Positions 9,086 to 62,530 of a DNA stretch of 64,000 nt are shown in pieces. The notes under the pieces were generated by a model that worked only from the letters and a program-made list of their open reading frames with translations, was not told the origin of the DNA and made no database searches. This stretch comes from a virus (lineage: Duplodnaviria > Caudoviricetes). Numbering within the stretch: the stretch's first letter is position 1; every line of letters starts with the position of its first letter. The stretch lies in the IMG/VR virus record IMGVR_UViG_3300033463_000076, positions 1 through 64,000 of that record; one strand, written 5' to 3'. The position numbers and the translations under genes are program-made.

Positions 9086-9198
9086 AAGTTAGGCGGGAGC
9101 CGTAGTTCGCATTCGTATTCGACCAAGCGTTATTCGAGTTGACGTACCCGAGACCCGCATTCGTGCCGTTATTCGCATTCGCGCCCACGAGACCCAAC
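9086..9198 (-). repeat. DGR template repeat (TR), 113 nt
   Basis: Matches 9374-9486 and 62008-62120, differing only at TR adenines; 10 AAY codons; reads LGLVGANANNGTNAGLGYVNSNNAWSNTNANYGSRLT. Confidence 0.95.
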
Positions 9199-9298
9199 GT
9201 GTCCCCATCCACCTGACACAATCAAGGTGAAGCCCTTGACCTTATTTCTCCTGTTGTATTCATCTTCTCAATCATTTTTCGTTACACGTTTTACGGGT

Positions 9299-9320
9299 GT
9301 GGCAGGCTTTCGCCCGCCAC
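9299..9320 (-). other. GC-rich hairpin with GAAA tetraloop 3' of DGR target 1
   Basis: Sense GTGGCGGGC-GAAA-GCCTGCCAC, 9-bp stem with one G-T pair. Confidence 0.55.
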
Positions 9321-9329
9321 CGCTACCCT

Positions 9330-10646
9330 TTATGCGATTTCACGTCCATCGACAAACGTCAACGGGCCATAATAAGCAAGGCGGGAGCCGGAGGCCGCAT
9401 CCGCAACCGACCAAGCGCGATTCGAGCGGACGTACCCGAGACCCGCATACGTGCCGTCATACGCAGCCGCGCCCACGAGACCCAACTGGCCAGTATCGTT
9501 GTTGTACGAGTAATCGCACCAACGAGAGTTAGAGCCACCAGCAGATGACACGGTCTTAGCGATAAAGTCGAAGTACTCGCCAAGTACGACCTCAGCAAGC
9601 CAGTTGGACGATGTCGGACGTGTCAGCTGACGGAAGTCACCGTTAGGCACTGATGACAGCTCAGCAGCAGAAGGCAGGTGGTTTCCTTTGTACAGGAAAA
9701 CCTCAGTACCATTCTGTCCGGCGTTGCCTGAGTTGCCGAAGTAGATACCCTGCATCATTTCCCAGTACCAACCGTAGGGGTTCTCGATACCGAAGAACGA
9801 AACGTGACAGGCCTTGTTGTTACCTGCAGCACTCGAGATATCCACTACACCGCACTCGTCACCGAGTCCCTTCGTGGCACCTGTCAGCATATTCTTCACG
9901 TTATCCCACGTGTTACCGTCGCCAGTAGGACCGTAGCCGATGTTCTCCTGAACGTTCGGATTGCCGTACTCTGCGAGGTTCATCATAATCATCAGCTTGC
10001 GGAGGTCATAGTCCACAAGACCGAAGTCCTGGCCGTTCAGCTGTGCTGCAGCCCAGAACGCGCTGATAGTGATAGAGGCCTTAACAGTCGCACCCGATAC
10101 AGAACGGAGCTTGTTGTTGGCGTCGAAACTGCCCATATAGCAGCCGATAACGTTGTAGTTGCCATGGTCTGCGCCTCCGATGTAGTGATTCGATATAGGC
10201 ATTTCCGACATCCACAGGTACGGGATGTTCGTCACTGCGTCCACCTCCACACGGTAGTACAGGCGAGGACCGATCCACACGATGTTACCCTTCGACTCGT
10301 CGAGGGTGGTACCGTCTGCATAGACACCACGGTTTGTCACTGACAGCTTCGCAGCCTTACCGTCGTTGGTCAGCAGGTAACAGCCGCACTGCGACTTGTA
10401 AGCCTCCCACAGATCGGTATTGCCGACACGTCCCCAGTCAGGGCTTGACTGCGTCTGCTTGATGGGCACACCCCAAGCCACGGAACGGAGCATCTGAGTG
10501 TCACCGTCGTTAATACTCGTAATCAGGTTGTCGAGAGTGATACGCTTGATTGCGCCGTTAATCTCAACAAGCACACACTGGCTTTTCATCATCGAAGAGA
10601 CGGTGCTAACCGTAGCCAGACCCTTCTTTTTTACATCATTAGACAT
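9330..10646 (-). CDS. DGR target 1; putative C-type-lectin-fold tail adhesin
   Basis: 438 aa within the tail module; FFGIENPYGWYWE motif; C-terminal variable repeat. Confidence 0.85.
   Translation of the reverse strand: MSNDVKKKGLATVSTVSSMMKSQCVLVEINGAIKRITLDNLITSINDGDTQMLRSVAWGVPIKQTQSSPDWGRVGNTDLWEAYKSQCGCYLLTNDGKAAKLSVTNRGVYADGTTLDESKGNIVWIGPRLYYRVEVDAVTNIPYLWMSEMPISNHYIGGADHGNYNVIGCYMGSFDANNKLRSVSGATVKASITISAFWAAAQLNGQDFGLVDYDLRKLMIMMNLAEYGNPNVQENIGYGPTGDGNTWDNVKNMLTGATKGLGDECGVVDISSAAGNNKACHVSFFGIENPYGWYWEMMQGIYFGNSGNAGQNGTEVFLYKGNHLPSAAELSSVPNGDFRQLTRPTSSNWLAEVVLGEYFDFIAKTVSSAGGSNSRWCDYSYNNDTGQLGLVGAAAYDGTYAGLGYVRSNRAWSVADAASGSRLAYYGPLTFVDGREIA
9374..9486 (-). repeat. DGR variable repeat VR1
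   Basis: Hand alignment: 18 mismatches to TR over 113 nt, all at TR adenines. Confidence 0.95.
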
Positions 10647-10662
10647 AACTCAATATTTTACA

Positions 10663-11745
10663 TTAATAAGTGAACTCCACGCCACCCGTCACGGTCACAT
10701 CATGCAGGCCTCCACCGGCCGTACTGTCTGCGTTCGTGATGGTTGTCGTTTTACCAGTGATATGTCGGATAGTGGACTTCGTCTCATAGTCGACTACATC
10801 CAGGTCCCACGTGATGTTAGAACACTGGCTTGTGATGTCGACGTCACCGTCTATCTTACTGATGTAAGCCTCGACGGCCACGGAATGCGACTCATCCACT
10901 CCCTCGCCTGTTGTCTTGAACCTGATGACGAACTCGTCGGCGACATCCTTGATAGTGATGCCACCCACTGCCTTCGTCTCTCCGTCGATGATGAACGCTG
11001 CCACAAGCTCCAGCACTGCATCCACGCCGTCACGCTGCACGGTAATCTGCTTCGTGTTGGCCGAAATGGTGTACTTTCCGCTGGTGGTAGACAGCTCATT
11101 GGCTGCAGCAATGCTTCCACGATACCACTTGACCGTGTACGCCTTGTCCGTGTAGTTCACGCCGCCCAGATAGAGCGCAGTCTTCACGACCGTCGACGTC
11201 GTTTCCTTATCGAGCGTGGCCTGCTGCGTGTAGACGGTACAGGTGAACGAGTTACTTGCGATATGCTGGATATCGATCGTCGTCGAGTTGGTAACGTGGA
11301 TATTGTTCACACCGTTATGCGAGGCGATGGCCTCATAGGTGAGTCCGTCATCCGCGTCGTTCTCCTTCGAAGCGAGGTTCTTGACGATCTTCAGCGTGCC
11401 GTCCGACTTCATGGCGAAATAGCCCTTGTAGTAGTTGGCGTTGCTGTTCAGCACGTAACCGTCGGAGTCAGCGTTTCCGTTGAACTCCAGGTACACGTCG
11501 TTATACAGCCACCTGTGGTTCATCAGCGTAACGGGCAGGCCGTCGGAAGCACGGCAGACAGGCTGTATAATCGGGCGCGACTCGGTATCTGTTTCCCAGT
11601 CAGGAACGACGAGTGCGGGCGTCTTGTCAGGGTCTACGCCCTGATAGAGCGGACCGCCGAGGTTCCTGAACGACGTGAACAGCGTACCGCCCGTGCGCAG
11701 TCTCTTGATGGTTATAGAACCTTGTGTAGAATAACTCTTGCTCAT
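10663..11745 (-). CDS. putative tail/structural protein (beta-rich)
   Basis: 360 aa; N-terminus SKSYSTQGSITIKRLR resembles the tail fibre N-terminus AKHSTQGSVVIHRIR. Confidence 0.55.
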   Translation of the reverse strand: MSKSYSTQGSITIKRLRTGGTLFTSFRNLGGPLYQGVDPDKTPALVVPDWETDTESRPIIQPVCRASDGLPVTLMNHRWLYNDVYLEFNGNADSDGYVLNSNANYYKGYFAMKSDGTLKIVKNLASKENDADDGLTYEAIASHNGVNNIHVTNSTTIDIQHIASNSFTCTVYTQQATLDKETTSTVVKTALYLGGVNYTDKAYTVKWYRGSIAAANELSTTSGKYTISANTKQITVQRDGVDAVLELVAAFIIDGETKAVGGITIKDVADEFVIRFKTTGEGVDESHSVAVEAYISKIDGDVDITSQCSNITWDLDVVDYETKSTIRHITGKTTTITNADSTAGGGLHDVTVTGGVEFTY

Positions 11746-11960
11746 TTCCTAAGCCATTCGTTAAGTTGGTGTAAGATGTCCTTCTCACTGAATACCTCGC
11801 CGCCTATCTGCTCGACGCGCTCCTCGAAGGTGCCCGTCAGCTTCTGGTTGACGACTATCTCCTTGCTGTTAAGCAATACCTGTGACGAGTTCGTGCGGTG
11901 GTACTTCAGGATAAACCCGTACTTCGCCGCCGTCTCTTTCTTTGCTACGATATATACCAT
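11742..11960 (-). CDS. hypothetical protein
   Basis: 72-aa ORF tightly coupled in the operon. Confidence 0.5.
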   Translation of the reverse strand: MVYIVAKKETAAKYGFILKYHRTNSSQVLLNSKEIVVNQKLTGTFEERVEQIGGEVFSEKDILHQLNEWLRK

Positions 11961-11962
11961 AA

Positions 11963-13177
11963 TCAGTTAAAGATAAAGGGTTTGCCAGTCTCGTCGGTCA
12001 GGATGTACTCGCCATCCGTTGCCACCGAGTAGGCAGGTTTGTATTCAATGTTCGTGTAGATTTCAAGCCAGTCATCGTCGTAGTTCGCTCCGATTCCCGT
12101 CTTGCTGAGAGAGAAAAGGGTGTCCTCACCCTCATTGTGCATCACCCCCTTCTTGTACTCTGTGTCTGTGTACCATACAATCTGAAGGCTCAGACCAGGA
12201 CAGTCGAGGATTTTCCCGTTATGCTCCATCGTCAGGTAGTCGTACCGTGCTTTCGCCGTCGGCACTATTCCCGTCTGATTGGCGTGCGTGATCTGCGTGT
12301 ACTTCGGCTTCAGCCTCTTCAACCCGAACTGCGTCCTGTCCTTCTCCTCGCCACGCACATACACTATGACGGCGTAGTTGTCGTCGTCAATGAGGCGCAG
12401 GTCAATCAGGATGTGGTTCCTGTCGAGTTCCTGCACCTCATGTTCCGGCGATGCGTCAATCTCCGTCAGGGCGTTGTTCGCGCCGATGCGGAACAGCTTG
12501 ACCGTATAGTCGTCCTCGGCGGTTGCCTGGGCGTCGCCCTTGAACACCATGATAGGGATGTTACAAAGGTACGACAGCTTGCTGGCAGCTGCCTGTTGCT
12601 CCGTTACGTTCTGTGCTATCCCGTGGGACTGCTTGTGTTCGTAAATCAGCAGCGGGTCTGTGAAGGGGTTGTAGTGGACCACTGGGTCGCAACCGACACT
12701 AATCTTGTACTGGAACTCGGCAAGGTCAATCGTACGAAGTATCACGTCGTTCGTCTTGACCTCGATGTTCTGTCCCAGGCGGCTGTCGGCCAGCACAGCC
12801 TCGAAGTGCAGCCTGTGCTGTTCCGTGGTCGGTATATTGCGGTAGACGACGAGACCGCCCCTGTCTGAGCCGACGGTAAGTATCTCGTAGTCAGTGCCCT
12901 CAGTCCACACCTCGGAAATCTCCGTTCCGTCCACGTACCACGTCAGGTCAGCGAGCATAGAGTTGGCGTAGGGGGTCTTCAGCGAGCCGTCAGGGGCATA
13001 GGCCAGCACCTTCGGCATAATCGTCGTAGGCGTAAGCTGTCGGTTCGGGATGTACTCCTGATCCTTGGCCTTGTACGTCTGCAGCAGCGTGCTGAAGCCG
13101 TTGGTAGGCACCACGAGCGACGTATAGACGGTCAGCGGTGCGTACTCCTTCTTGATTCTTAGTCTCGTTGTCTCCAT
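11963..13177 (-). CDS. putative tail/structural protein
   Basis: 404 aa beta-rich ORF in the tail module. Confidence 0.55.
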   Translation of the reverse strand: METTRLRIKKEYAPLTVYTSLVVPTNGFSTLLQTYKAKDQEYIPNRQLTPTTIMPKVLAYAPDGSLKTPYANSMLADLTWYVDGTEISEVWTEGTDYEILTVGSDRGGLVVYRNIPTTEQHRLHFEAVLADSRLGQNIEVKTNDVILRTIDLAEFQYKISVGCDPVVHYNPFTDPLLIYEHKQSHGIAQNVTEQQAAASKLSYLCNIPIMVFKGDAQATAEDDYTVKLFRIGANNALTEIDASPEHEVQELDRNHILIDLRLIDDDNYAVIVYVRGEEKDRTQFGLKRLKPKYTQITHANQTGIVPTAKARYDYLTMEHNGKILDCPGLSLQIVWYTDTEYKKGVMHNEGEDTLFSLSKTGIGANYDDDWLEIYTNIEYKPAYSVATDGEYILTDETGKPFIFN

Positions 13178-13197
13178 TTCTCGCTATCTTTAGAGGG

Positions 13198-13401
13198 TCA
13201 TTCGGTATATACCACAGCGCCGTAAATCTGAGCCACGTAGATCAGCAGGTCGCTTGTCTGGTATGTCGTACCGTTAACCGTTACTGTCTGCATCCCGTCG
13301 ACCGTAGTCTGCAGGGTTGCGAGTTGCTGGCGTGCTCCGGCGTCCTTCAACTGCCGTACCTCACCAGTCTTCTTCAATTTTATCTTTGATAAGAATGCCA
13401 T
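13198..13401 (-). CDS. hypothetical protein
   Basis: 67 aa; LKDAGARQQL motif seen in phage tail/fibre linker proteins. Confidence 0.45.
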   Translation of the reverse strand: MAFLSKIKLKKTGEVRQLKDAGARQQLATLQTTVDGMQTVTVNGTTYQTSDLLIYVAQIYGAVVYTE

Positions 13402-13412
13402 AATACTTTCAT

Positions 13413-13661: not shown

Positions 13662-13682
13662 AACTTTCTCTTTAGAGGTTTG

Positions 13683-19317: not shown

Positions 19318-22300
19318 CTATAAATTCTTAGTGTTGTTAGCAATATCCTCGAGCGAACCGCCCAGCTTCACATACATCAGCTTGGCATATCGCACCATAT
19401 CCTCCAAATAGCCCGTCGATGTGAACACGAGGGCACGAATCTCAGAGACGTCACTGGCCATGGACGAACTGAACGTCACGATGCTTGTCAGGTGCTCCAC
19501 AGCGAGAATCATCTGACTGCTGATCGCGTCGTTCGATATCTGCAGGGCGGTAAATCGGCCGTTCAGCTCCTCGCCAGTGTCCTGACTCATGGCCTCGAAG
19601 CCCTTGGAACTGGCTTCCTGAGTGTAGGCACCGCCCGACCATCCCATAGACTTACGCAGTTCGTCACGCTCCTTCAAGGCATCGTTGACGATATCCTGGT
19701 ACTCCTTCTTCAAGGCGTCCTGCTCCTGCTTCGTCAGTTCGCTTCCCGACTCAGAGGCTTCGGCGAAACTCTTGTACCACTGCTCCAGACGTGCCTTGTA
19801 CTTCGACAGCATCAGGCTCGAGATAATGGCGTTCTGCATATACTTCTCGAACTTCTCCGTGAACGTCTTGGCATCAGAGTCCATATCCATCAACTGGCTC
19901 TTGAAGTCCGACGTGAGAGAGTCGAACGACATTCCAGTCAGCTGCTCACGTGCCTCCTCGACAGCCTTCTTCATTTCATCGTCTGCCTCGATAATCATGT
20001 CAAGGTACTTACGGGCTTCCTCAGACAGCGACTGCCAGAACTGACGGTTGCTGTACTTCAGGTCACGCAGTTCGTCGGCAGACAGGTCAAACAGCCTTGA
20101 TATATCACCGTTGGCTACATATTGGAACTGAGTACCCATAAAGTTCCTCAGCTCGGCACCCATACGCTTCGCCAGTTCGGGATCACTCTCCCACAGATAT
20201 CCCCAGTTCGCGTCTCTGTTAGCCTCATAGCCGTTCGAGTGTGAGAACCAGCCGGCACCGTCAGAGGCCCAGGCACGGTACATTTCCGCTGCGGCCTTCT
20301 GCGTCAGTTCAAGGTCTCGCTCGGTCTTCGTCATAATAGCGGAAACACCCTCACCGTAGGCTTCCTCCATCAGCTTCTTCTCGTACTCAAGGTTATCCTT
20401 CCACGTGTCGAGCAGCCAGCCCCACTTCTTCGTAGCAGCCTCGAAGTTCTTAGTACCACCTCCGAAGACACCACTCATGTCGAAGCCGAACAGGCCACCT
20501 ATACCCGATACCACACCGCCGATGATATTACCCACGCCCTGTACGACGTTGGCGATAATCTGCGGCAGGTCTTTAAGGATGGCCTCAATGACCTTTGCAA
20601 TCTTATTCAGGATATCCTCGATGAACTGTGCAGGGTCTTCACCCAGCGCGTCGATAATCTGCAGGATGGCACCGATGATACCACCGACCTTTCCGCCTAT
20701 CTCGCTGAACGTAGCGGCCACCTTCTTGCCGCTTCCAGATATCTGATTGATAAGGTTATAAATACCAGTTGCGAAGCCTCCCAGCGATCCCGACGTCAGC
20801 TGTCCCAGTATGGTGTCGAACTTCCTCAGTCCCTGAGTAGCGGAATCAGTAGCGCCTTTCAGGTTCTGGTTGGCCTTGTTCTTCTCCTCCTCGGTCTTCT
20901 TGACGGCCTCTGAGGACTCTGCGACGGCCTGGTTGGCCATGTCGACCTTCATCTGAGCCATCATCTTAGCGGTAGGCGTTGTGGCCTCCTGCAGCTCCTT
21001 CTCGGCTGCAATCAGCTTATCGACAGCGTTCTTATGTGTCTCTTGTGCGTTCAGGAAATCCCTAACCCTCTGCTTGTACTCGTCGGCATACTTGGCGATA
21101 TCATCCCACGTCGATGCCTTGAACGGGCTGGCACTCTGAACACCACCTGCATCCACCAACTGGCTTCTGAGGTCATAGTAGGCTTTCTTGTCAGCAGCGT
21201 CGAGTTCCTTGAACTCCTTCGTGTTCATGTATTCATCGACCTTCTGAAGCGTCTCTCTTGCGATACCCTCGAGGACGTTACCGATACCACCAAACACCTG
21301 ATTCCAGTCGATGCTCATAGCCATAGCCTGAGCGTTCACCTTAGACAGTGCGCTCTTCTTGTCAGCCTCGAGCATCATTTTACGGCTCTTGCTGTGTTCC
21401 TCGGCGATACGGCGGTCATACTCCTTGGATATGGCATAGCGCTGCTGTTCGAGCGTACCGTACTGCTTCAGGTAGTCGTACATGCCAGTCAGCTCGTCGA
21501 CGTACCTCTGCTGTATGATACGTGAATAGTCGTTCTGCTCCTTCTCCAGCTGAGCCTTTATGAGATTGTTCTGGTCCTCGGACAGCGTGACACCCTGCCA
21601 GCCCGCCTTACCCTCGGCTGTGTCCTCATAGACACCATCCTTGTGGGCATTCTCCCAGACGCGCTTGTTATGCTCATAGACGGCCTTCTTCATTTCCTCG
21701 GCCTGCTCCTCGATCTGACGGATGTTACGGCGGTGCTGTTCGTCCTGCTCGGCACGTTCACGCTCGCCCTCGTTCCTTATATATGATATACGCACGTCAC
21801 TGCGTGCATCGTCAAGTCTCTTGCGGAGGTCATCAAGCTCCTCCTGCCAGCGTCTCTCCTCCTGGAGTGCAGCGGCACGTCTCTTTGCGACATCGTTCGT
21901 ACCGCCCTTCTTGCCAGAGGTGGAACCGCCATACTTCTGATACTGCTTCTTAGCGTCATCGACATCGGCCTGAAGCTGCTCGACCTTCTTATCAAACGTT
22001 TCCTTATCGACCTCGTCCTTCTGCTTGTAGTAGTCATCAAGGGCTTTCTCAGCGGCCTTCCACTTCGAGTAGGCATCGGCCTTCCACTGGGCTGCGGTCT
22101 TGGTAGGAGCGGCGCTTGCGCTTCTCTCGTACTTGCCAGTGACATAGTTGAAGTACATACCCTCCTTGCCGTTGTTCCTCGCATTCTCAAGACCCTCCTC
22201 GGCCTCCTTGTAGTGAATCTGGAAATACAGCGGAATGGTCGTGGCGCCAGTGGCCACCCAGCCGGCCTTCATGTTCAGGATATCGTCGAGGGCCTTCTGC

Positions 22301-24219
22301 TTCTCCTCCAGCGCGAGTCTCAGCTTGATATCGGCAGGACTCTCGGCGACCTTCTTTCTGAGGTCTTCAACCTCTTCCTGCAGGTCACTGATAAGGTCAT
22401 CGTATTTCTTGCGGACATCCTCGGCGACCTTCTCGTAGTCTGTGGGTATGTTCGTGTTCGATATCGTACCCTCGGCGATATCATGAGCCTCCTTGAGCAT
22501 ACCGGCGAGATCAGCGGCCTTCTTGTAGAACTTGTATATCTCCTCCTTCGCCTGGACGTTCTCGTTGGCTTCCTGAATCTTTATCTCGAGAGGCTTGCTG
22601 TTCTCAGCTATCTCCTGTCTGATGCGATTCATTTCAACGAGCTTAGAGATATAGATATCCAGTTCGGCCTCGGCCTCCTCCACATCTTTCTTCGATGTGT
22701 TATTGGTAGTCGTATATCCATACGTCGCAGCGTTCACCGTTTCCTCATAAGCGGCCTTAGTCACCTCAAGCTTTTCCCTCAGTTCGTCAACCTTCTGCTG
22801 GATATGCTCGAAGTTGGCTTCGTTCATCTGCTGGTTCAGCTCACGGTTGGCCTGAGCCAAGTCCATAGTGGCCACCTCTGCCTTCGAATACTTCTCCGTA
22901 AGGGTAGGAGCGGCCTTCGACAGCATTTCCCACGCTACGGCCTTATCGTATTCCGTCGCGCTTGCATCCTGCAGGGTGTTGATATAGCCCTGAATCTTAT
23001 TCTTCTGCTCGTCGAGACCGTCGGCGAACTTCTGCATTTCCTCGTTGGCCTTACGACGGGCGATAGTCTCTGCATCCTCGGCGGTAGCGAGCTTGTATGT
23101 CAGCACCACCAGCGTAGTGATGGCTGCTGCAGCCCACACGTAGGGGTTCATCAGGGTAGCCGCTGCGAGTTCCTTCGTGGCGACTATCAGTGAACGGCGA
23201 ACGTTTGTAAGCATGACCTCCATAGCTGCCTGACGTGCCTGTCCTGCCGTCAGTGCATGGCCAGCGGCCGTTGCGAGAGCCTGCTGTACCGCTGCCTCTG
23301 CCATCAGGGCATTGTTGGCCTTCTGAATGGCATTGACGGCAATCATGACAGCCTTGTACGATCCGATGGCAACTGCAGCCGTGCCGATAGCCTCACCGAC
23401 ACCTCTCCAGTTCTCGACGAGGTACGAGACGGCACCCAGTCCGGCGTTGATGACACCCTCAGACTGCTTACCCATATCGTTGAACATCATATCGACGGCA
23501 TCCTCGATGTTCGATATCTGTCCTACGATGGTCTTCGACTGCTCCTTCATGAGACCGCCGAACTTGCTGCCCTCGTTCGTCATATTGATAAACGCCTGAT
23601 GGAACACATCGGCCGTCACCTTACCTGCTGTTACCAAATCGGGTATCTGGTTCTTCGTGACGTTCAGCACCTTTGCAATCTCCTCGGCGATAGGAATACC
23701 TCGGCCCTGGAACTGCCTCAAGTCCTGCGTGAACATCCTACCCTGAACCATAGTAGTACCGTAGAGGTACACCAAATCGCTCAACTGGATAGACATACCT
23801 GCAGCGACATCACCCAGACGGACAATCATTTCGTTAACGTCATCGACGGCAGTGCCGTAGGCAAGCAACTGCTTGGCACCGTCGGCCACGCCTTTCAGGT
23901 CGAACGGGGTGGTGGCTGCAGTCTTGACCAGCTGATCCATCAGCTTCTGTGCGGCCTGTTCGCTTCCGAGCATCGTCTTGAAGGCCACCTCCAGCTGCTG
24001 GAACTGACCACGCACATCCATGATATCGCTTATCAGTTCCTTTGCGGAGAATCCTGCGAACGACAAAGCAGCCGCCTTCTTCAGACGGTCAAACATCTGC
24101 TCGACACCCATACCGGACTTCTCCACGTCCTGCATGGTAGAGCGGACACTGTTACGTACACCCTCCATCGACGTGAGGAATCCCTTGTTATCTCCAGTTA
24201 TAGCGAACTTTATAGGCAT
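19318..24219 (-). CDS. tape measure protein
   Basis: 1633 aa, helical; N-terminal tape-measure domain (AATTPFDL...AKQLLAYG...DLRQFQGRGIPI). Confidence 0.92.
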   Translation of the reverse strand: MPIKFAITGDNKGFLTSMEGVRNSVRSTMQDVEKSGMGVEQMFDRLKKAAALSFAGFSAKELISDIMDVRGQFQQLEVAFKTMLGSEQAAQKLMDQLVKTAATTPFDLKGVADGAKQLLAYGTAVDDVNEMIVRLGDVAAGMSIQLSDLVYLYGTTMVQGRMFTQDLRQFQGRGIPIAEEIAKVLNVTKNQIPDLVTAGKVTADVFHQAFINMTNEGSKFGGLMKEQSKTIVGQISNIEDAVDMMFNDMGKQSEGVINAGLGAVSYLVENWRGVGEAIGTAAVAIGSYKAVMIAVNAIQKANNALMAEAAVQQALATAAGHALTAGQARQAAMEVMLTNVRRSLIVATKELAAATLMNPYVWAAAAITTLVVLTYKLATAEDAETIARRKANEEMQKFADGLDEQKNKIQGYINTLQDASATEYDKAVAWEMLSKAAPTLTEKYSKAEVATMDLAQANRELNQQMNEANFEHIQQKVDELREKLEVTKAAYEETVNAATYGYTTTNNTSKKDVEEAEAELDIYISKLVEMNRIRQEIAENSKPLEIKIQEANENVQAKEEIYKFYKKAADLAGMLKEAHDIAEGTISNTNIPTDYEKVAEDVRKKYDDLISDLQEEVEDLRKKVAESPADIKLRLALEEKQKALDDILNMKAGWVATGATTIPLYFQIHYKEAEEGLENARNNGKEGMYFNYVTGKYERSASAAPTKTAAQWKADAYSKWKAAEKALDDYYKQKDEVDKETFDKKVEQLQADVDDAKKQYQKYGGSTSGKKGGTNDVAKRRAAALQEERRWQEELDDLRKRLDDARSDVRISYIRNEGERERAEQDEQHRRNIRQIEEQAEEMKKAVYEHNKRVWENAHKDGVYEDTAEGKAGWQGVTLSEDQNNLIKAQLEKEQNDYSRIIQQRYVDELTGMYDYLKQYGTLEQQRYAISKEYDRRIAEEHSKSRKMMLEADKKSALSKVNAQAMAMSIDWNQVFGGIGNVLEGIARETLQKVDEYMNTKEFKELDAADKKAYYDLRSQLVDAGGVQSASPFKASTWDDIAKYADEYKQRVRDFLNAQETHKNAVDKLIAAEKELQEATTPTAKMMAQMKVDMANQAVAESSEAVKKTEEEKNKANQNLKGATDSATQGLRKFDTILGQLTSGSLGGFATGIYNLINQISGSGKKVAATFSEIGGKVGGIIGAILQIIDALGEDPAQFIEDILNKIAKVIEAILKDLPQIIANVVQGVGNIIGGVVSGIGGLFGFDMSGVFGGGTKNFEAATKKWGWLLDTWKDNLEYEKKLMEEAYGEGVSAIMTKTERDLELTQKAAAEMYRAWASDGAGWFSHSNGYEANRDANWGYLWESDPELAKRMGAELRNFMGTQFQYVANGDISRLFDLSADELRDLKYSNRQFWQSLSEEARKYLDMIIEADDEMKKAVEEAREQLTGMSFDSLTSDFKSQLMDMDSDAKTFTEKFEKYMQNAIISSLMLSKYKARLEQWYKSFAEASESGSELTKQEQDALKKEYQDIVNDALKERDELRKSMGWSGGAYTQEASSKGFEAMSQDTGEELNGRFTALQISNDAISSQMILAVEHLTSIVTFSSSMASDVSEIRALVFTSTGYLEDMVRYAKLMYVKLGGSLEDIANNTKNL

Positions 24220-46458: not shown

Positions 46459-48207
46459 TCACATTCCGATATAATCATGCAAATATTTCATCTGCGTGCC
46501 GTTCTTCAGGTCGATAAGGCCTTCCCACGACGAGTTAAGCAGCAGCCTGTTTCCGAATCCTGAGTAGGCCAGTTTCTGCATAGGAACGTAATCACCGCAC
46601 TGACTGATGAAACTCATTGCTTCATCAAGCTCCTGCTGTGTAATCTTTCCTCTTGCAGCGGCTTCCTCGACCATCCACGTGATATCCTTCTTCCTGGCCA
46701 TGGCGCCATACTTGGCCCAGCACAAACCGCCTCTTTCCATATTGGCCTTGATATACACCTTCTGAATACCGCACAACTCATACTGCTCGAACAGATCACG
46801 GAACACACGCTTTCCGATTCCGATACCCTGCATAGGCTCAGGCAGAACAAATTCCTCATGGTCGACCACAGGAATCTTAGAACCACCGGACTGCTCAAAC
46901 CTGAACAGACGGGTAAGGGTCAGCTTGGCATCATCCTTATCACGTGCGCTGTATTTCAAACGAACCTCTCCATCACCGCAGTCAATCAGGTGCTTATAGC
47001 CAATCCTGCACTCGTATTCATCACATATCCCCTCAAACTTCCTGTCGAACCTGCTGACGTTGAAGCCGGCCATCGCACTCTTATTGAAGGCCTCAACAGC
47101 CACAGCCCTCTTAGAGAATCCTCGGGTAATCAGCTCACTGCGTATCTCCTCAGTCATTTCAAACGGCTGCAGGGCCTTGCTTGCCTCATTCACCAACGAC
47201 CTGTTATCACGCAGCCAGTAGGGGAGCGTGCCCTTCTTACTGGCCTTGACGATCTCGGCGGCGTGGTCTGCCAGCCAGTTCTTCATGTTATCAGGAACAT
47301 CCGTCACCTCGTTCTTGCTCGGATCGTCATCATCAGCCCAGAAATCATCCTCGTCTTTCAGGATAGGAACGACGTAGCACATATCGTTAGGATGCCAGCC
47401 CGTCCACTTAATCGTTTTCGGGTACTTTCCTGCAAGCATATCGCAGATATCGCCGTTCGGCATACGGTCATGATGGCTCTTGCTCAGTTTTATCTCGAAG
47501 CCGATGACGAAGTCCATCTGCTGCCAGCGGGTCCACTCGGCTGTACGGTAGGCCATGTTTATCTCTGAACGGGCGAGACGGAGGGAACGGTACTCACAGT
47601 CCTCGCACTCGACGGCCTTTCCGTACCTCTCCTTGTAGTCATCCTTCAGCCTGTCGAAGTCCTTCAGGTACTTACTGAGACGCTTGCTGAGGGTAACGGC
47701 ATCGATACCCTTCTCCAGTGCCGACGAAATGGCGTACTCCATTTCCTGCTTCATGTTCTCCGACTGGTCCCAGATTGCTTCCGACAGGTGGAACTCCCCA
47801 CTGATCTTGCGCTGCTGGAAAGCCTTCAACACGTCGCTGTTCGTCTGATAGTACACCTTGTGCTTCTCACCTCCGGCCTTGGAACCGTAGTATTTCAGCA
47901 CCTTGTCAGCCAACAAGTCCTGAACGATGTTACTCTGCTTCCACTCGTCGCTTGTACCACGATGTATGATAGCGCCGATATCCTCGACGAAGCGGCTCTG
48001 CACCTTCCTCATCGCGTCCTTCGTCTCAGGGAAGTCGGAGAAACGGAACGGTACATCACTGGCGGCATATCCAGTACGCTCGGCTATCTTTGCCGTCTCG
48101 AGACTACACGCATCAAAGACACCCTGAACCAATAACAGGTATCGGTTCAGGCGGGCGTTCAACGACGTGTACTTACCCTTCTGGTTTATCCCCCTCGGTG
48201 TTCCCAT
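46459..48207 (-). CDS. MuF-like head morphogenesis protein with C-terminal GNAT-like domain
   Basis: RLARSEINMAYR, CDMLAGKYPK...WHPNDMCYVVP (MuF); VDHEEFVLPEPMQGIGIGKRVF...ANMERGGLCWAKYG (GNAT-like). Confidence 0.8.
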   Translation of the reverse strand: MGTPRGINQKGKYTSLNARLNRYLLLVQGVFDACSLETAKIAERTGYAASDVPFRFSDFPETKDAMRKVQSRFVEDIGAIIHRGTSDEWKQSNIVQDLLADKVLKYYGSKAGGEKHKVYYQTNSDVLKAFQQRKISGEFHLSEAIWDQSENMKQEMEYAISSALEKGIDAVTLSKRLSKYLKDFDRLKDDYKERYGKAVECEDCEYRSLRLARSEINMAYRTAEWTRWQQMDFVIGFEIKLSKSHHDRMPNGDICDMLAGKYPKTIKWTGWHPNDMCYVVPILKDEDDFWADDDDPSKNEVTDVPDNMKNWLADHAAEIVKASKKGTLPYWLRDNRSLVNEASKALQPFEMTEEIRSELITRGFSKRAVAVEAFNKSAMAGFNVSRFDRKFEGICDEYECRIGYKHLIDCGDGEVRLKYSARDKDDAKLTLTRLFRFEQSGGSKIPVVDHEEFVLPEPMQGIGIGKRVFRDLFEQYELCGIQKVYIKANMERGGLCWAKYGAMARKKDITWMVEEAAARGKITQQELDEAMSFISQCGDYVPMQKLAYSGFGNRLLLNSSWEGLIDLKNGTQMKYLHDYIGM

Positions 48208-48771: not shown

Positions 48772-50220
48772 TTATACTGCTCCCTCCTGTAAGAGCGAGC
48801 TTAACGTTGACTTGTTCTCTTCTGTCTGTTCCTGCTGAATCTGCTCCAGCGTCTTAACTGGGTCTTTCGACTTTCCATAGCGGATAATGGACTCCAAATG
48901 GCTCTCGATGGCCTTGCCACCGTTGGCCTTCAGACGCTTCTCGATCTCCTGCATTTCGTCCTTCGGGATGTACGGCGTAATGACGTGCTTGATACGGACG
49001 TTATCGACCTCCTTCTCCCACTCAGGGTCATCGGACATAATCTTCAGGAACGCCTTGATGACATTACCCTCACGACGGTATGCCTGAAGTAGCGGCTTGG
49101 ACTCCTGGCCAATCTTCAGGAACACGTCAATGAATATCGTCATACGGGCATCGTAGCCGATAGAGTTGAGCTGTATCATCTTCTCTACGCTGATATCGGC
49201 CATCTGGTTAATCTGCCAAAAGAACGACAGGCTTCTGTCGATGTGGTTCTTGTTAGCATCATTCGACTGATCCCACGAGACATACGATACATCGCCTGTG
49301 TTCTCCACACGGAAAATACGACGGCTCTCACCCTTATCCTCGTCGCCCTGCAGCTGACCGGCAATCTTCAGGATTGGCGTAGCATTCCAGGCGATAACGT
49401 CGCTGTCCCTCGAGTGGGTGTACTCCACATCCTCGCGCAAGTCGCTCGAACCCTGCTTCCACGTCTTTTTCTTACGCCAAGCATACACTCCAGGAATCTT
49501 CAGGATGACAACCTCGTCGCCATACGTGACATTTCCCTCTGCATCTTCATACAGGATGACAGGCTCCCAGTCGCCACCGTCCTTGCACCACTTGTACTTC
49601 CTGTCCTTCGTATAGGTCTCGAAGAACTCCAGTTCCTTGTCACCGACGGTCTTCTTGTAGTAGAACGACATGGCCAGCATATCATCCATTTCGTCCATCA
49701 GCGGGTACAGGACGACATCGTCATTCATCGGCGAATACACCTTGCACTTCAGCTTGTAGTCCGAATGGAAGCCGTACAGGTCATTCTCCTTCTTGACTGC
49801 ATACCACAACGTGAACATTTCGCAAGCGGCAAAGTACGCCAGTCCTCGTTCCATGTTCACGGTGTCGATGTCTGCCTCCTCATAGATACGCTCTATGGCG
49901 GTGGCGATCTTCTGACGAACCTCGTTATCGTCGATATCCTGGTACTCACGCTTGACGGGTATGGTGTGCATGAACTGATTGATACGGTTGACCAGCAGCT
50001 CTTCAAGTCCTATGGCTATCTGAGCGGCTTCGTCAACAGTGCCGTCGTCATGAACAACGTCAACACGTCCAGAGTCATCACCTGCTATCTTATGCTTGCT
50101 TGCATACAGCTCTTCCTTCAACTTATCCCACGCTGGCGGGTTGGTCGATTTCTTCATCAGGTCATTAACTATGGCATTACTGCCACGAGACCAGTCGAGT
50201 ATCTTCAAAAGTTCGTCCAT
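48772..50220 (-). CDS. portal protein (SPP1-like)
   Basis: Likely start MDELLKILDW at 50220; LYPLMDEMDDMLAMS; IPGVYAWR; HVITPYIPKDE. Confidence 0.85.
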   Translation of the reverse strand: MDELLKILDWSRGSNAIVNDLMKKSTNPPAWDKLKEELYASKHKIAGDDSGRVDVVHDDGTVDEAAQIAIGLEELLVNRINQFMHTIPVKREYQDIDDNEVRQKIATAIERIYEEADIDTVNMERGLAYFAACEMFTLWYAVKKENDLYGFHSDYKLKCKVYSPMNDDVVLYPLMDEMDDMLAMSFYYKKTVGDKELEFFETYTKDRKYKWCKDGGDWEPVILYEDAEGNVTYGDEVVILKIPGVYAWRKKKTWKQGSSDLREDVEYTHSRDSDVIAWNATPILKIAGQLQGDEDKGESRRIFRVENTGDVSYVSWDQSNDANKNHIDRSLSFFWQINQMADISVEKMIQLNSIGYDARMTIFIDVFLKIGQESKPLLQAYRREGNVIKAFLKIMSDDPEWEKEVDNVRIKHVITPYIPKDEMQEIEKRLKANGGKAIESHLESIIRYGKSKDPVKTLEQIQQEQTEENKSTLSSLLQEGAV

Positions 50221-50244
50221 CGATGTATTTTTGTTATAACGGCG

Positions 50245-50303
50245 CAAATATAGCAAAAAAACTCCGAAACTATTTGAAAAACAAAGAGAATTAACATTCT
50301 TTG
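50245..50303. promoter_or_regulatory. portal promoter plus palindromic element in divergent orientation
   Basis: Minus -7 TATATTTG (50245-50252); plus-strand TATTTG-AAAAA-CAAAGA-GAATTAAC-ATTCTTTG. Confidence 0.55.
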
Positions 50304-50417
50304 TCAAAATAGCCTCGGAGTAACATTAAGAAACTTGCTCGTAAAAAAGCAATGAAACGCCTCACGGCGGTATTTCCTAAACTAACTATTATTCCACCTA
50401 ACTCGCATAGCGGCGAC

Positions 50418-57352: not shown

Positions 57353-58549
57353 TCAGAACTTTCTCGTTTCCTTTGCCTTGAAATTGTACACTGGCTTGAT
57401 AACCTCAAGCACCTCCACCGTAGGCTCTATGCAGTCGATAATCTCCTGCATCGGCTTATAGACCATAGGACTCTCGTCGAGGGTTTCAGGACAGACGGAC
57501 GTAGAATACACATCCTTCATTTCTGACTTGAACTGCTCTACATCGAGCGTCTGGAAGGCTTTCTTTCGGCTCATTAAGCGTCCAGCTCCGTGCGGTGCAG
57601 AATACAGCCAATCAGGATTGCCCTTACCGACACAAATCAGCGAACCGTCGCGCATATTCATCGGGATAATCAGACGCTCACCTCTCATAGCCCTCACGGC
57701 ACCCTTACGGACTGTCAGGCGGTTCATGCTGTTGTCGATGTAGTTATGCACCGTCTGGAACATATCGTATGCGTGGAGTTCCATCTTCTTACAGATCGTT
57801 CTCATTATCACATGACGATTCAGCTCTGCATACTTCTGAGCAATCATCATATCATTGATATAGTCGGCAATCCACTCAGGACCGATGCCGGCCAAATCAC
57901 CATCGACTGACGGAATTTTCAACTTCTGCAGCTCGCTCTGGATATCCTTCTGACGTCCTTCCTTCTTCAGTCTGTCAATCAATTCCTGCCTCTGCTTTTC
58001 ATCGATCTTCTTCGCTATGCCACAAGCAGCCTCAATTCCTTTCTGCTGATAATACTCACAGATACGGACACCGAGGTTACGGCTTCCTGAATGGATGACG
58101 ATATAGAAACGGCCGTCCTTATCCACGTTCGCCTCGATGAAGTGGTTACCACCACCCAGCGTACCGAGCGAACGATAATCGTTATCGATATTGATAATCG
58201 ACTTCGCTTTCAGGAACAGCAGTTCCGGCATCTGCTCTATGGCCTCCTTATGGATATTGAACCCAGACGGAACGAACTCGTTAATCACTTCGTCGAGCTT
58301 CTTCAGATCGACCTCAGCGTGCTCGAAGTTGGCTACGAGCATACCACATCCGATATCCACTCCTACGGTGTTCGGCACTACCTGGTCTTTCAGTTCGATG
58401 ACCGTCCCGATAGTACAGCCTTTCCCCGCATGGCAGTCAGGCATAACTCTAATCTTGCAATCCTTATAGGCATCGCACTCACTCATTTTCTCAATCTGCC
58501 AAGTGGCTTCATCTTCCACCGTCTTAGCGAAAATCTTAACTCTTTCCAT
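57353..58549 (-). CDS. rtcB: RtcB family RNA 3'-5' ligase
   Basis: MPDCHAGKG, GVDIGCG, GTLGGGNHFIE, IHSGSRNLG, HNY, APHGAGR, DESPMVYK. Confidence 0.93.
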   Translation of the reverse strand: MERVKIFAKTVEDEATWQIEKMSECDAYKDCKIRVMPDCHAGKGCTIGTVIELKDQVVPNTVGVDIGCGMLVANFEHAEVDLKKLDEVINEFVPSGFNIHKEAIEQMPELLFLKAKSIINIDNDYRSLGTLGGGNHFIEANVDKDGRFYIVIHSGSRNLGVRICEYYQQKGIEAACGIAKKIDEKQRQELIDRLKKEGRQKDIQSELQKLKIPSVDGDLAGIGPEWIADYINDMMIAQKYAELNRHVIMRTICKKMELHAYDMFQTVHNYIDNSMNRLTVRKGAVRAMRGERLIIPMNMRDGSLICVGKGNPDWLYSAPHGAGRLMSRKKAFQTLDVEQFKSEMKDVYSTSVCPETLDESPMVYKPMQEIIDCIEPTVEVLEVIKPVYNFKAKETRKF

Positions 58550-58873
58550 TGCTATTATTCTTACGTTTAACGTGTTCTCTTCTCTTTACTCTTGCTGACA
58601 GGCTCTGGTTCTTATTCCATCCCTTCGGCACAAGCATGAAATCCTCATTGAACGGAACAGGAACAGGGCGTATCATATCCGCTGCATCCTTGCAAAACTC
58701 CTTCAAGAACTTCTTCAGATCGCTCATACTCTATTCATGTTTACATTCAATACTATCATCATCAACCTGGCCACCATAATGCTTGCACATCTGGCAAGCA
58801 ATAGAGCCGACCATCATCTTACCACCGCCGAACATCGGCCGTTCTCCGTGCGGACATGGATTCGTGAAATAAT

Positions 58874-59158
58874 TCACAGGCCCAGCCATTCCGCAAATGA
58901 CTTCGCTTTCCGCTTTAAGGACTGCCATACGCTTCCACAATTACATTTGATAAACATCTGCTTCGACGGATCACTCTCTACGTAACCGCCGAAGTGCATA
59001 CACTTCTCACAATCTCTGCTTCCGACAAACACGGGCAATATCATTTCCTTCTTGAAGGCCTCGACGAAAGTCTTCTGCATCTTACCGTACGGACACTTGG
59101 CGATAACTCTGTAGCTTTTCTCCTTGACGTCCGTCTTTTTTACTTCTAACTTTGCCAT
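58874..59158 (-). CDS. Cys-rich hypothetical protein
   Basis: CPYG...VGSRDCEKCMHF; paralogous pattern in 58731-58940. Confidence 0.45.
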   Translation of the reverse strand: MAKLEVKKTDVKEKSYRVIAKCPYGKMQKTFVEAFKKEMILPVFVGSRDCEKCMHFGGYVESDPSKQMFIKCNCGSVWQSLKRKAKSFAEWLGL

Positions 59159-59316
59159 ATTCTCTGATTAAATCTCTGATAACAACCACTTTCATCAGCC
59201 AGCAGTACTTCGGGTCGTCGAATCTGAATCATCTGTACACTGCATTCTTTCGACTTGACATCTGCTGACAGAACGGACAATACTTCCGATTACATTTCTT
59301 GGCTAATTCTCCCATA

Positions 59317-59769
59317 TCACTTACATCTTGAACGAATACGATTCCAAAAGTTCTTCGGCTTGAAGTTACGGCGCTTATCGTACTTAGCGAGTTTCTGACG
59401 GTAGGGTATCGGCTCCTCCTTCGGCTGCTCGATAGGCTCCAAGAACCTGATATCAGGGATATCGATTTCCTTCAACTCGAACCTTACGGGTGGTATGTAG
59501 TAGGGCTGTGGCAGAACAACGACTACCTCCTCCGATTCATCATTGAAGTACTCCAGACGATTCTCGATGCCATTCAGCCAAGCCTCTTTCGTTACCATAC
59601 CAGGGAACCACTCTTCGCCGATTCTGATCAAGTCGTCGAAACCATGGCCAATCTCCTTCTTTCCACACTCGTCAAAAGTATAGATGAAGCCAACAAGGCC
59701 ACTCAGCAGCTCCTCTCGTCTCTCAGGCGAACAATCTGCCAACTCCTTACGAACATCCGCTACCGTCAT
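59317..59769 (-). CDS. hypothetical protein
   Basis: 150 aa, coupled ORF. Confidence 0.5.
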   Translation of the reverse strand: MTVADVRKELADCSPERREELLSGLVGFIYTFDECGKKEIGHGFDDLIRIGEEWFPGMVTKEAWLNGIENRLEYFNDESEEVVVVLPQPYYIPPVRFELKEIDIPDIRFLEPIEQPKEEPIPYRQKLAKYDKRRNFKPKNFWNRIRSRCK

Positions 59770-60083
59770 TCTCCTTTCAGCTTCTTTTCAAACATAATCT
59801 TCAAGGCTTCCTCGTCACGTCCCATCTTCATCATCATTTCGGCTACGTTAGTATCGAAATCACCGCTTTGGACGGCTATCAATGCAATCAGCGCCAAATG
59901 CTTAATCTGGTCTGACTGGATGGCAGTCACCTCAATCACCTTCTCGAGCATACCTTCCTGACTGAAGCCACGCTCTTTCATTCCACGAAGTCCTATCATG
60001 TACTTCTGGGACCTCTCCATCATCGTCAGGATGTACTTAATCAGTCCCTTCTTGTCTTTCAGCAGTTCTGCAATATCATTCAT
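59766..60083 (-). CDS. hypothetical helical protein
   Basis: 105 aa, ATGA overlaps. Confidence 0.5.
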   Translation of the reverse strand: MNDIAELLKDKKGLIKYILTMMERSQKYMIGLRGMKERGFSQEGMLEKVIEVTAIQSDQIKHLALIALIAVQSGDFDTNVAEMMMKMGRDEEALKIMFEKKLKGE

Positions 60084-60727
60084 TTCTCTATCAGTTTATA
60101 GTCAAACACCCATACCCAGGGATTACTCTCCCACGTTCCTTTTCCACAGACAGCGTTTATCAGTCCTGCGAAAGCGTCTCTTGCATTCGAGTAAACGATA
60201 TGCTCAATCCTTTTCTTCGATATCACGAGGTAGGCGAAATCTCCAATCTCTCCAGTCTTGACATCCTGAGCCTGAATAGGAGCGTGAACAATACCCTCAC
60301 GCATGATATCCTCGTCCGTGATATCCTGCAGCCGTTCAAAACGTACGTCCGTGACCTCCACGAAGTGCTTCATTAGGTCTGCCTTGACGAACATCTTGTT
60401 ACTCCAGCCCTCTTCGCTTCCCAGACCGTCCTCATGACCGGCAGGGCAGTACATCGGATCATAGCCGAGACGCTTGTAACTCTCAGCTATGGCCACAACC
60501 TCACCGACCATGTACGGCGGTCTCATTACACCGTGTGCATCGTCGCCGTAGATATACTCCATATAACCCTTGAAATGACCTTCCTTAATCAGTCCTACGG
60601 GTCGTACGAAATTATCCTCTATGCCTTTGGCGAGGCGACTCGTCCGCGTCTTCAGACGTTTCAGAGTCAGCCACGTCAAACCGCGCTTGTCATCAAACAG
60701 ATATTTCTTCATCTTAGTACTTTCCAC
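60080..60727 (-). CDS. conserved phage protein (ASCH/PUA-like)
   Basis: KTRTSR...PYMVGEVVAIAESY...VRFERLQDITDED..REG...WESNPWVWV. Confidence 0.6.
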   Translation of the reverse strand: MESTKMKKYLFDDKRGLTWLTLKRLKTRTSRLAKGIEDNFVRPVGLIKEGHFKGYMEYIYGDDAHGVMRPPYMVGEVVAIAESYKRLGYDPMYCPAGHEDGLGSEEGWSNKMFVKADLMKHFVEVTDVRFERLQDITDEDIMREGIVHAPIQAQDVKTGEIGDFAYLVISKKRIEHIVYSNARDAFAGLINAVCGKGTWESNPWVWVFDYKLIEK

Positions 60728-61283
60728 AAACCTTATCGTAAATCTGATGACTCAGCTCAATGTCATAGAAGGCATCGTGCAGCTTCTCCTCTTCGACCTT
60801 GACACCCAGGGCCTCCGCTACCGACGACTGCTTGAAGTCCTTCATCTGCGAACGCTTGTCAACGAGATACGGAGTGGCCAGCACGATACAATCGAGGTAG
60901 TTCGACCAAAAGTAACTGCCAAACCACTTCTCACCACAACGGGCAAACCACGCTCTCAGGAACTGGTTGTCGAACGGACCGATATTGAAACCGCACAGGT
61001 AGAACTTATCAGCCTTATCGTACTTGCTGATGTACTTCTCCAGCATCATCTTGAACTTCTGGAACTGAACCATGTGGCTTGTATAGCCAGCAATCTGCTC
61101 ACGGGTCACACCGCTTACCCTCAGCGCTTCATCCGTGATTTCAGCACCATCATGCGGACGCAGCTTCAGGTTGAACGTCTCTTTTACCTCTCCATCGATC
61201 ACCACCTTACCGGACAGCTGATGGATTGCACTCTTCTGACTGTCGAGACCTGTAGTCTCTACGTCGTAAATCAAAATCTTCAT
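60714..61283 (-). CDS. DEDDh 3'-5' exonuclease (DnaQ-like)
   Basis: YDVETTG, GFNIGPFD, LHDAFYD. Confidence 0.85.
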   Translation of the reverse strand: MKILIYDVETTGLDSQKSAIHQLSGKVVIDGEVKETFNLKLRPHDGAEITDEALRVSGVTREQIAGYTSHMVQFQKFKMMLEKYISKYDKADKFYLCGFNIGPFDNQFLRAWFARCGEKWFGSYFWSNYLDCIVLATPYLVDKRSQMKDFKQSSVAEALGVKVEEEKLHDAFYDIELSHQIYDKVCGKY

Positions 61284-61287
61284 ATCT

Positions 61288-61926
61288 TTATGCTTTAGGG
61301 GTTAATAACTTCTTCTCATTCTCACAGAACTGGACGTTATGTATCAGCGTCATCACGTCACCGTAGGCATCGTGCTTGACCTGATTGCCGACAGGCGGTA
61401 TCAACGAATACGGCTTTTCTACCTCGGGGTGGAACTGTCTCATGTGCTCCAGTATGAACGTGCGGCTGTCCCTCACCTCGTCATGTTTCCAAGGCATCGC
61501 CTCAATCTCACCCTTCGACCTCTTTTCACCGAACACCACAATATAGGCGTTCTTCAGGATCGGGCCGTCGAAGTCGGTGCCCTGCATCCATACCCTCACG
61601 CCGTCCGCATTGTGTTCAGACTTCCAAATCTCAAAGGCCTGATTCAGTTCAAACAGCGCCTCCCTCAGTGGAACCGAGTTTCCTTCGAGGAACGGCTTCT
61701 TTGCCTCGTCGCTCTGCTCACTCCACCACTTGATAGTTCCCTCAGCGAAATCCAGTCCATACATCGCACAACTGCTTGCATCGACCGTCGTAAAGAACGG
61801 TTCACCCTCAACCGGCTTGCCATACCCGTCCAAGTCGAACGGGCTGGCAGCGATTGACATGATTGCGGCTGTCGGCCTGAGTGACAGCGTCTCGATATCG
61901 ATTGCAATATCCAAAATCTTCTTCAT
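61288..61926 (-). CDS. DEDDh 3'-5' exoribonuclease-like protein (Rv2179c/DUF5051 type)
   Basis: IDIETLS...IMSIAA, TIKWWSEQ, WMQGTDFD, RDSRT, HDAYGD. Confidence 0.8.
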   Translation of the reverse strand: MKKILDIAIDIETLSLRPTAAIMSIAASPFDLDGYGKPVEGEPFFTTVDASSCAMYGLDFAEGTIKWWSEQSDEAKKPFLEGNSVPLREALFELNQAFEIWKSEHNADGVRVWMQGTDFDGPILKNAYIVVFGEKRSKGEIEAMPWKHDEVRDSRTFILEHMRQFHPEVEKPYSLIPPVGNQVKHDAYGDVMTLIHNVQFCENEKKLLTPKA

Positions 61927-61930
61927 GGCC

Positions 61931-62530
61931 TCAGAACTTTCCTACGTAATCAACCCAGATATCCTTAAACTGCTTCCCAGAGTAGTCCGCCAACGCTTCG
62001 CTTTTATAAGCAAGGCGGGAGCCGGAGGACGCATCCGGATACGACCAAGCGTTAGACGAGGAGACGCACCCGAGACCCGCAGCCGAGCCGTTATTCGCAT
62101 CCGCGCCCACGAGACCCAACTTCTGCTTCTTCTCCTCGGTCATTTCCTCGATCTCCTCCTTCGTGTAATAGCGGAACCAGGGGAACCAGCGGTATTCGTC
62201 ATCAGTAAACTTCGGCTTCCAGCCTTCGTTCAGGGCTGCTGTGATGATACACAGCTTCATGAAAGCCACGATACCACTCGTCTTTATGTTCTCAGCATTC
62301 GACTCGTAATCTGCCAACATGGTACCAGCGTCATCGTCACCACGCTCTGCTCTGGCGCCTAACACCTTGCAGGCATCCTCGAACGTCTTCACTCTCTCCG
62401 TGATAGGCAGCAGACAATCCAGCACTCCGTCGTTATCAGCCTCGATATCGAACTCTGACAACAGACCCTTCACTTTCTCTCCGAAATCCTGTGCCACATC
62501 ATCGGGCACATTCAACATAATCTGTTTCAT
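61931..62530 (-). CDS. DGR target 2 (remote, non-tail)
   Basis: ITERVKTFEDACKVLG...ALNEGWKPKF..EYRWFPWF; carries VR2. Confidence 0.85.
   Translation of the reverse strand: MKQIMLNVPDDVAQDFGEKVKGLLSEFDIEADNDGVLDCLLPITERVKTFEDACKVLGARAERGDDDAGTMLADYESNAENIKTSGIVAFMKLCIITAALNEGWKPKFTDDEYRWFPWFRYYTKEEIEEMTEEKKQKLGLVGADANNGSAAGLGCVSSSNAWSYPDASSGSRLAYKSEALADYSGKQFKDIWVDYVGKF
62008..62120 (-). repeat. DGR variable repeat VR2
   Basis: Hand alignment: 17 mismatches to TR over 113 nt, all at TR adenines. Confidence 0.95.

Follow-up and report, generated by a model that had tools for sequence, protein, structure and literature searches.

A diversity-generating retroelement with two naturally varying targets in a temperate phage: a lectin-fold tail protein and a distal member of the phrog_11581 family

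Diversity-generating retroelements (DGRs) that serve a tail protein, and in some phages a second and distant protein as well, form the background against which we describe the DGR of IMG/VR record IMGVR_UViG_3300033463_000076 (Duplodnaviria; Caudoviricetes), of which positions 1 to 64,000 are hereafter called the window. In Bordetella BPP-1 (Mtd/Avd/TR/Brt), as in the phage studied here, there is an adenine-specific transfer of sequence from a template repeat (TR) to a variable repeat (VR), the same logic of initiation-of-mutagenic-homing sites (IMH in the VR, IMH* in the TR), and a lectin-fold tail protein as the target. However, the BPP-1 DGR diversifies one target only and depends on Avd, whereas in the present phage the targets number two, an Avd is not recognisable and neither VR is followed by a significant hairpin. 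Two targets of one DGR were described for Quimbyvirus (Benler 2021, Microbiome 9:78, PMC8008677). In both Quimbyvirus and LoVEphage (PMC8008677; Van Espen 2021, PMC8525569) there is one TR, one VR lies in a protein encoded after the tail-fibre genes, and the second VR lies in a distal, apparently non-structural gene amid nuclease, methyltransferase and tRNA-ligase genes, which is also the arrangement found here. Dahlman 2025 (Nature, PMC12629997) reported that in four prophage species a second VR lies close to counter-defence genes, and the second target of these double-VR gut prophages is given there without family assignment, structure or function; one of the two references cited there for LoVEphage is also the source of 1,241 gut viromes, and we take it to be Benler because the 1,241-virome set was assembled by Benler. 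The Roseburia phage Shimadzu (Cornuault 2019, bioRxiv 10.1101/575076) has a VR in a tail gene and a VR2 in orf43/44 of unknown function; it has a Firmicute host, and a phage-collection search (E 1e-5), which included no test aimed at orf43/44, returned no similarity between Shimadzu and the distal target described below. The DGR survey of Roux 2021 was unable to detect remote targets. A first-pass annotation of the window had held that the role of this distal target family is not established, and that part stands; the two-target layout and this protein family as a distal target are, however, already published for Bacteroides phages (PMC8008677, PMC12629997).

The DGR comprises exactly three copies of one repeat, no others being returned when the entire record (80,112 bp) was searched at the DNA and profile level, and the genes concerned are all on the minus strand. 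The TR (9198..9086, minus strand) is 113 nt long, contains 26 adenines and carries IMH* at its 3' end (9084-9102; …GGCTCCCGCCTAACTTTA). VR1 (9486..9374, minus strand, with its IMH at 9372-9390) has 18 mismatches to the TR and VR2 (62120..62008, minus strand, IMH at 62006-62024) has 17. The alignments of the TR with both VRs are gapless over the 113 nt and 35/35 mismatches fall at TR adenines, the chance of which is (26/113)^35, or about 5e-23. Homology starts abruptly on the 5' side, at GTTGGGTCTCG, in TR, VR1 and VR2 alike. The sequence at the 3' end is CTTGCTTAT in both VRs but CTAACTTTA in the TR, and this is the difference between IMH and IMH*: the IMH tail is …CGCCTTGCTTAT in VR1 and VR2, the IMH* tail is …CGCCTAACTTTA in the TR, and the IMH of VR2 is identical to that of VR1. 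The first-pass annotation had matched one TR to two VRs with mismatches only at TR adenines and had tentatively assigned IMH and IMH* from the same difference, and its counts of 18 and 17 were recovered here. With differences confined to TR adenines, 3'-end VRs that carry an IMH, and a divergent IMH* in the template, the locus is confirmed as a DGR.

A direct comparison of VR1 with VR2 shows 17 differing positions, and of the 11 sites mutated in both, 4 carry an identical non-TR base. Because this sharing is close to the one-third expected by chance, we conclude that the two VRs arose from independent homing events. A single reading frame is common to both, and the A-bearing codons of the TR are AAY, ACG and TAC, so that changes at A cannot create stop codons. 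An open reading frame (ORF) of 91 aa that overlaps the TR (8946-9221) is just the TR read as protein, its PHROG matches being limited to the VR. On the linear record the two VRs are separated by 53 kb, or by approximately 27 kb across the ends of the record if the excised genome is circular. No hairpin or cruciform of the BPP-1 kind is indicated 3' of either VR, where the folds of the DNA did not surpass those of shuffled sequence (z -1.3 and -0.5).

Both VRs diversify in nature. VR1, which is part of the gene for the tail protein (target 1), differs in a 95%-identical homologue (P0144). For the distal protein (target 2), which contains VR2, 1,159 relatives were recovered from among 5.8 billion proteins, and the 90%-identity cluster to which target 2 belongs has 10 members from separate samples (Logan, ENA, JGI). 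The seven other VR2 haplotypes in this cluster each carry 9-16 residue differences from target 2 within aa 144-169 and, among all seven, just one substitution outside that segment. Of the codons that bear an A, 14/16 vary, against 4/21 of the remaining VR codons, and variation outside the VR is confined to 1 position (Fisher p 1.6e-15). The small number of changes away from A is compatible with TRs that differ slightly among sister phages. The same pattern of VR2 variation is seen in a sister cluster (P0007). On a contig with flanks 94-98% identical to those of the present phage (L106, Logan SRR16020841), 18/19 VR2 differences from the present TR are at A, and in its target 2 gene 8 synonymous differences lie outside the VR, against 17 differences within it. 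While the A-coded positions vary, the scaffold of the VR (G148, G152, L153, W162, S163 and GSRLAYK) is constant among close relatives. The first-pass annotation had considered that VR2 might be a fossil, invariant across populations. That reading fails because the seven other haplotypes and the L106 contig differ mainly inside the VR, and VR2 varies between independent samples in just the way expected of a live DGR target.

Target 1 (9330..10646, minus strand, 438 aa) matches phrog_5302, 'tail protein', at E 4e-42; VR1 corresponds to aa 387-425 and ends 13 aa before the stop codon. An AlphaFold2 (AF2) model built with 44 homologues has a predicted local distance difference test score (pLDDT) of 87.6 and the VR is well modelled (approximately 90). 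In Foldseek the model matches TaqVP of Thermus (5VF4; E 6e-9, probability 1.0) and Mtd (1YU3; E 9e-3), and the gene is located downstream of the tape measure gene (19318-24219) and other tail genes. Because of the TaqVP and Mtd matches, the phrog_5302 assignment and the position after the tail genes, we regard target 1 as a canonical C-type-lectin-fold DGR tail protein, which agrees with the earlier description of it as a tail-module adhesin, and it is presumably the receptor-binding protein. The DGR reverse transcriptase (RT; 7465..8919, minus strand, 484 aa) matches phrog_1423 (E 1.5e-56) and RVT_1, and contains the DGR-type (I/L)GxxxSQ motif as GSCISQ, followed by the catalytic HCDD. It is encoded by a single ORF, whereas the RT of Quimbyvirus and LoVEphage is spread over three overlapping frames, and the two targets in those phages are 15 kb apart on opposite strands rather than 53 kb apart on the same strand. 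The RT also has a C-terminal extension of approximately 120 aa (7465-7830).

Target 2 (61931..62530, minus strand) is an acidic protein (pI 4.5) of 199 aa in which VR2 corresponds to aa 138-175. It is a full-length member of the phrog_11581 family (E 5.8e-48), its residues 41-196 aligning with profile positions 41-191 of 200. No signal peptide, N-terminal hydrophobic region or transmembrane segment was detected in it, the only hydrophobic stretch being in a conserved core helix (residues 85-101), and a conserved C-terminal helix of approximately 24 aa lies between the end of VR2 and the stop codon; the length, the lack of a signal peptide and the residues after the VR had all been noted correctly in the first-pass annotation. 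The same annotation had raised a C-type-lectin-like scaffold for the VR, and for this the model gives no support. In the AF2 model of target 2 (43 homologues), residues 40-135 and 170-199 are predicted to be helical with a pLDDT of approximately 90, and the VR (residues 139-169) is left unmodelled with a pLDDT below 40. Foldseek gave no PDB match at E ≤0.001, and the best match in a VIA-align comparison with 48,161 chains had a Z of only 4.4, to helical minibinders; the matches of neither search include a lectin-fold or DGR protein. Searches of BFVD returned solely uncharacterised gut-phage proteins and those of the ESM Atlas solely 'hypothetical protein' clusters. At the sequence level there was no meaningful NCBIfam, Pfam or PDB-profile match, and a Pfam run on 43 family members gave 0 lectin families. 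Alignment of the target 1 and target 2 families by hhalign is confident over the VR and weak for about 45 residues upstream, where it pairs helices of target 2 with strands of target 1, so that the two proteins are essentially unrelated outside the VR, as first proposed. Both Quimbyvirus targets were called C-type-lectin proteins (PMC8008677), whereas the lectin fold was not recovered here for target 2. As far as structure prediction can tell, the scaffold of target 2 is not recognisably lectin-like, and this goes beyond the accounts of Benler 2021, Dahlman 2025 and Cornuault. A search of the phage's own genome found no paralogue of target 2.

The target 2 gene sits among genes for nucleic acid metabolism. 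Directly downstream, after a 4-nt gap, is an exonuclease of the Rv2179c-like type (PF16473, E 4e-27), and next is an RNase_T (DnaQ-like) exonuclease (PF00929, E 1e-14), the two 3'-5' exonucleases together spanning 60714..61926 on the minus strand. Upstream are a 355-aa ORF without assigned function, 3 nt from target 2, and the gene for a DUF3873 protein (62534..63823, minus strand, for the two), with a DUF4942 DNA methyltransferase gene upstream of the latter (63827-65374 of the genome). The RtcB tRNA-splicing ligase (57353..58549, minus strand; phrog_1075, E 2e-127) is encoded 3.4 kb downstream of target 2. In the direction of transcription the order of the operon is, accordingly, DUF4942 methyltransferase, DUF3873, 355-aa ORF, target 2, the two exonucleases, RtcB and the portal protein, and genes for a DnaD-like loader, NinG, a helicase and SSB lie further upstream of the methyltransferase. 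The portal gene (48772-50307) is the first recognisable structural gene and is 11.6 kb downstream of target 2. The PF16473 and PF00929 matches and this gene order uphold the earlier placement of target 2 in an early or accessory operon beside two exonucleases.

Relatives of target 2 are found in many other phages, with at least 143 in IMG/VR. The distal target of LoVEphage (MW660583, 33613-34197) is a homologue with 42-44% identity, and its VR matches the TR (49393-49500) and VR1 (49676-49788) of that phage. In sets of near-identical IMG/VR genomes the variable sites cluster in the VR, at codon positions 1 and 2 (14/14, 21/21, 21/32 and 25/38 sites), the first two counts coming from pairs of genomes. 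In one group of relatives the TR and VR1 are 11 kb from the family member, and records 140-200 kb long contain three copies of the repeat. At 22/80 loci, 2-4 paralogues are arrayed in tandem. In LoVEphage, phage Versailles and IMGVR_UViG_3300048918_000310 (G022, locus L061), the family members belong to modules of recombination, replication or methyltransferase genes, and a member in a crAss-like phage lies among small accessory genes. G022 is a complete phage of 48,193 bp with terminal repeats. Its DGR (L061:2818-4911) consists, in order, of two tandem paralogues each with a VR, the TR, the RT (phrog_1423, E 5e-127), a 135-aa ORF and an exonuclease. The two VRs have 12/16 and 12/13 of their mismatches to the TR at A, and no further VR, including any tail-protein VR, was found in the genome. 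Two other loci (L060 and L064) have the same layout, L060 with three paralogues and a methyltransferase upstream. Short members of the family (121-175 aa) can, therefore, be cassette-local DGR targets, and that such short paralogues are the only targets of a DGR goes beyond the accounts of Benler 2021, Dahlman 2025 and Cornuault.

The backbone of the present phage differs from that of Quimbyvirus and LoVEphage. An integrase is encoded at 78466-79746 of the record, so the phage is temperate, and it is of the siphovirus type. The best match of its TerL in the phage collection is only 30% identical, the matching phages are unrelated, and there is no Bacteroides phage among the top matches listed. 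Judged by TerL, the phage falls outside the 'Quimbyviridae', the architecture being common to both and TerL unrelated. Since TerL is unrelated to that of LoVEphage, we regard the phage as another lineage with the same two-target architecture, a point that is beyond the published accounts. Several further features of the genome were observed. The ends of the record (1-9 and 80104-80112) are identical (GCGGTTACT), which could represent a trimmed circular junction or an att core. For a 582-aa MuF-like head-morphogenesis protein (46459-48207) there is a further match to phrog_16625, 'Bxa ADP-ribosyl transferase' (E 3e-53), suggestive of a cargo or toxin-like domain fused to it. Approximately 12 kb of accessory genes come between terL (32.4-34.0 kb) and the genes for the portal and MuF proteins (46.5-50.3 kb), an unusual arrangement for head and packaging genes. 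The motif TAAGAGCAATG (≤1 mismatch) occurs 11 times in the window, against 1.1 expected, mostly at the starts of minus-strand genes. Its sites include 32122, 45550, 46083, 52978, 54781 and 55492, and it is absent at the start of target 2.

Based on the known workings of DGRs, we put forward the following mechanism. RNA of the TR would be reverse-transcribed with adenine-specific errors, and mutagenic retrohoming would put the resulting cDNA in the place of either VR, with guidance from the 5' homology that the repeats have in common and from the identical 3' IMH, with the TR being spared through its divergent IMH*. Target 2 would be co-transcribed with the DNA methyltransferase, the two exonucleases and RtcB. 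We propose, with moderate confidence, that target 2 is a non-virion variable binder that acts within the infected or lysogenic cell in phage-host or phage-phage conflict, for example in counter-defence or host takeover. We infer both its cytoplasmic location and its role in conflict, and it is gene context that argues for an intracellular role. A wider proposal, which we offer tentatively and with considerable doubt, is that phrog_11581 is a compact, non-lectin intracellular DGR scaffold that provides an adaptive counter-defence or takeover binder, in some phages as the second target of a tail DGR, as in the present phage, and in others as tandem paralogues that alone are served by a dedicated DGR within the nuclease/methyltransferase module, as in G022.

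Several observations weigh against this account of the DGR and of target 2. The position of the target 2 gene is compatible with a virion or ejected protein, and a binding surface on target 2 is assumed, given the low confidence with which the VR is modelled. In one lineage of 11 IMG/VR contigs that are 63-90% complete (L045-L056), the VR-like segment is completely invariant and neither a TR nor VR1 is present on the contigs; these members appear to be non-diversified, and the family would seem also to work or persist without diversification. Across 80 loci no gene family was a neighbour in more than 23, and the absence of a family-wide conserved neighbour means that no partner is suggested. 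Experiments showed that both VRs of Shimadzu are mutated and that the VR2 alleles were under weaker selection than those of VR1 (Cornuault, bioRxiv 10.1101/575076), which, by analogy, fits a dispensable role. Finally, no small ORF of the present cassette has a Pfam, PHROG or NCBIfam match to an Avd-like or HRDC-type accessory. The 130-aa ORF that follows the RT (7045-7437) has no family match and is acidic (pI 4.4), whereas Avd is basic; as far as we know from published DGR surveys, Avd is not universal among DGRs.

If target 2 were instead virion-associated or ejected, as a decoration protein, an accessory adhesin or an internal protein, VR2 would diversify a second surface that is extracellular or acts at the entry stage. 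The VRs of target 2 and of the tail protein are homologous, in phages the genes for some virion proteins lie outside the morphogenesis block, and all of the genes are on one strand, so that orientation does not separate the modules. Moreover, in the sole longer relative that was found (P0264, 399 aa, 22 member sequences), an Lcl_C/DUF1566 lectin-like domain is fused N-terminal to the family core, although it scores just under the Pfam cutoff (34.3 bits versus 34.9). Nevertheless, 11.6 kb separate target 2 from the first recognisable structural gene, which is downstream of it, translational coupling links target 2 to methyltransferase and exonuclease genes, and outside the VR target 2 has no structural-protein PHROG or fold match. 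The family member labelled 'tail protein' in phage Versailles is encoded with NinB on one side and the replisome organiser on the other, and that label probably comes from the VR alone. We therefore consider a virion or ejected protein to be unlikely. The tandem arrays of paralogues in the family, together with the temperate nature of the phage as indicated by its integrase, might point to a prophage-encoded sensor or exclusion factor with which the lysogen recognises proteins of superinfecting phages or of other mobile elements, in defence rather than counter-defence, and DGR-diversified putative antigen sensors of bacterial conflict systems (PMC10907252) provide a precedent. However, the gene is inside the lytic early operon and away from the integrase and immunity region at 73-80 kb, and target 2 has neither an effector domain nor a conserved partner gene. 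Members of phrog_11581 are also present in crAss-like phages, which to our knowledge are mostly not temperate. A role in defence of the lysogen is, in our estimate, distinctly improbable.

A very small likelihood attaches to VR2 being a tolerated bystander, whereby a segment with a VR and IMH was acquired and is diversified without adaptive use, or, in the extreme version, is a fossil. The weak selection on the Shimadzu VR2 alleles (bioRxiv 10.1101/575076) and the lineage with an invariant VR would be accommodated by it. On the other hand, the many live VR2 haplotypes exclude the fossil version, the scaffold residues of the VR are fixed while the A-coded positions vary, and more than 1,100 relatives exist. 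In addition, some phages keep a DGR that serves the phrog_11581 family alone, which is hard to explain without a benefit.

The phrog_11581 family, to which our proposal of an intracellular variable binder applies, is large (>1,100 clusters), is present in some human-gut phages of the highest prevalence and has no assigned function. Earlier work had already opened the question of what its members do, and the present phage adds another lineage and clean evidence of natural variation. Because cultured, engineerable relatives exist in the form of the LoVEphage isolates, the question of function is testable. If target 2 is truly intracellular, the DGRs of gut phages would serve more than receptor switching, and if our proposal is true the phage would gain a self-mutating binding protein for intracellular conflict.

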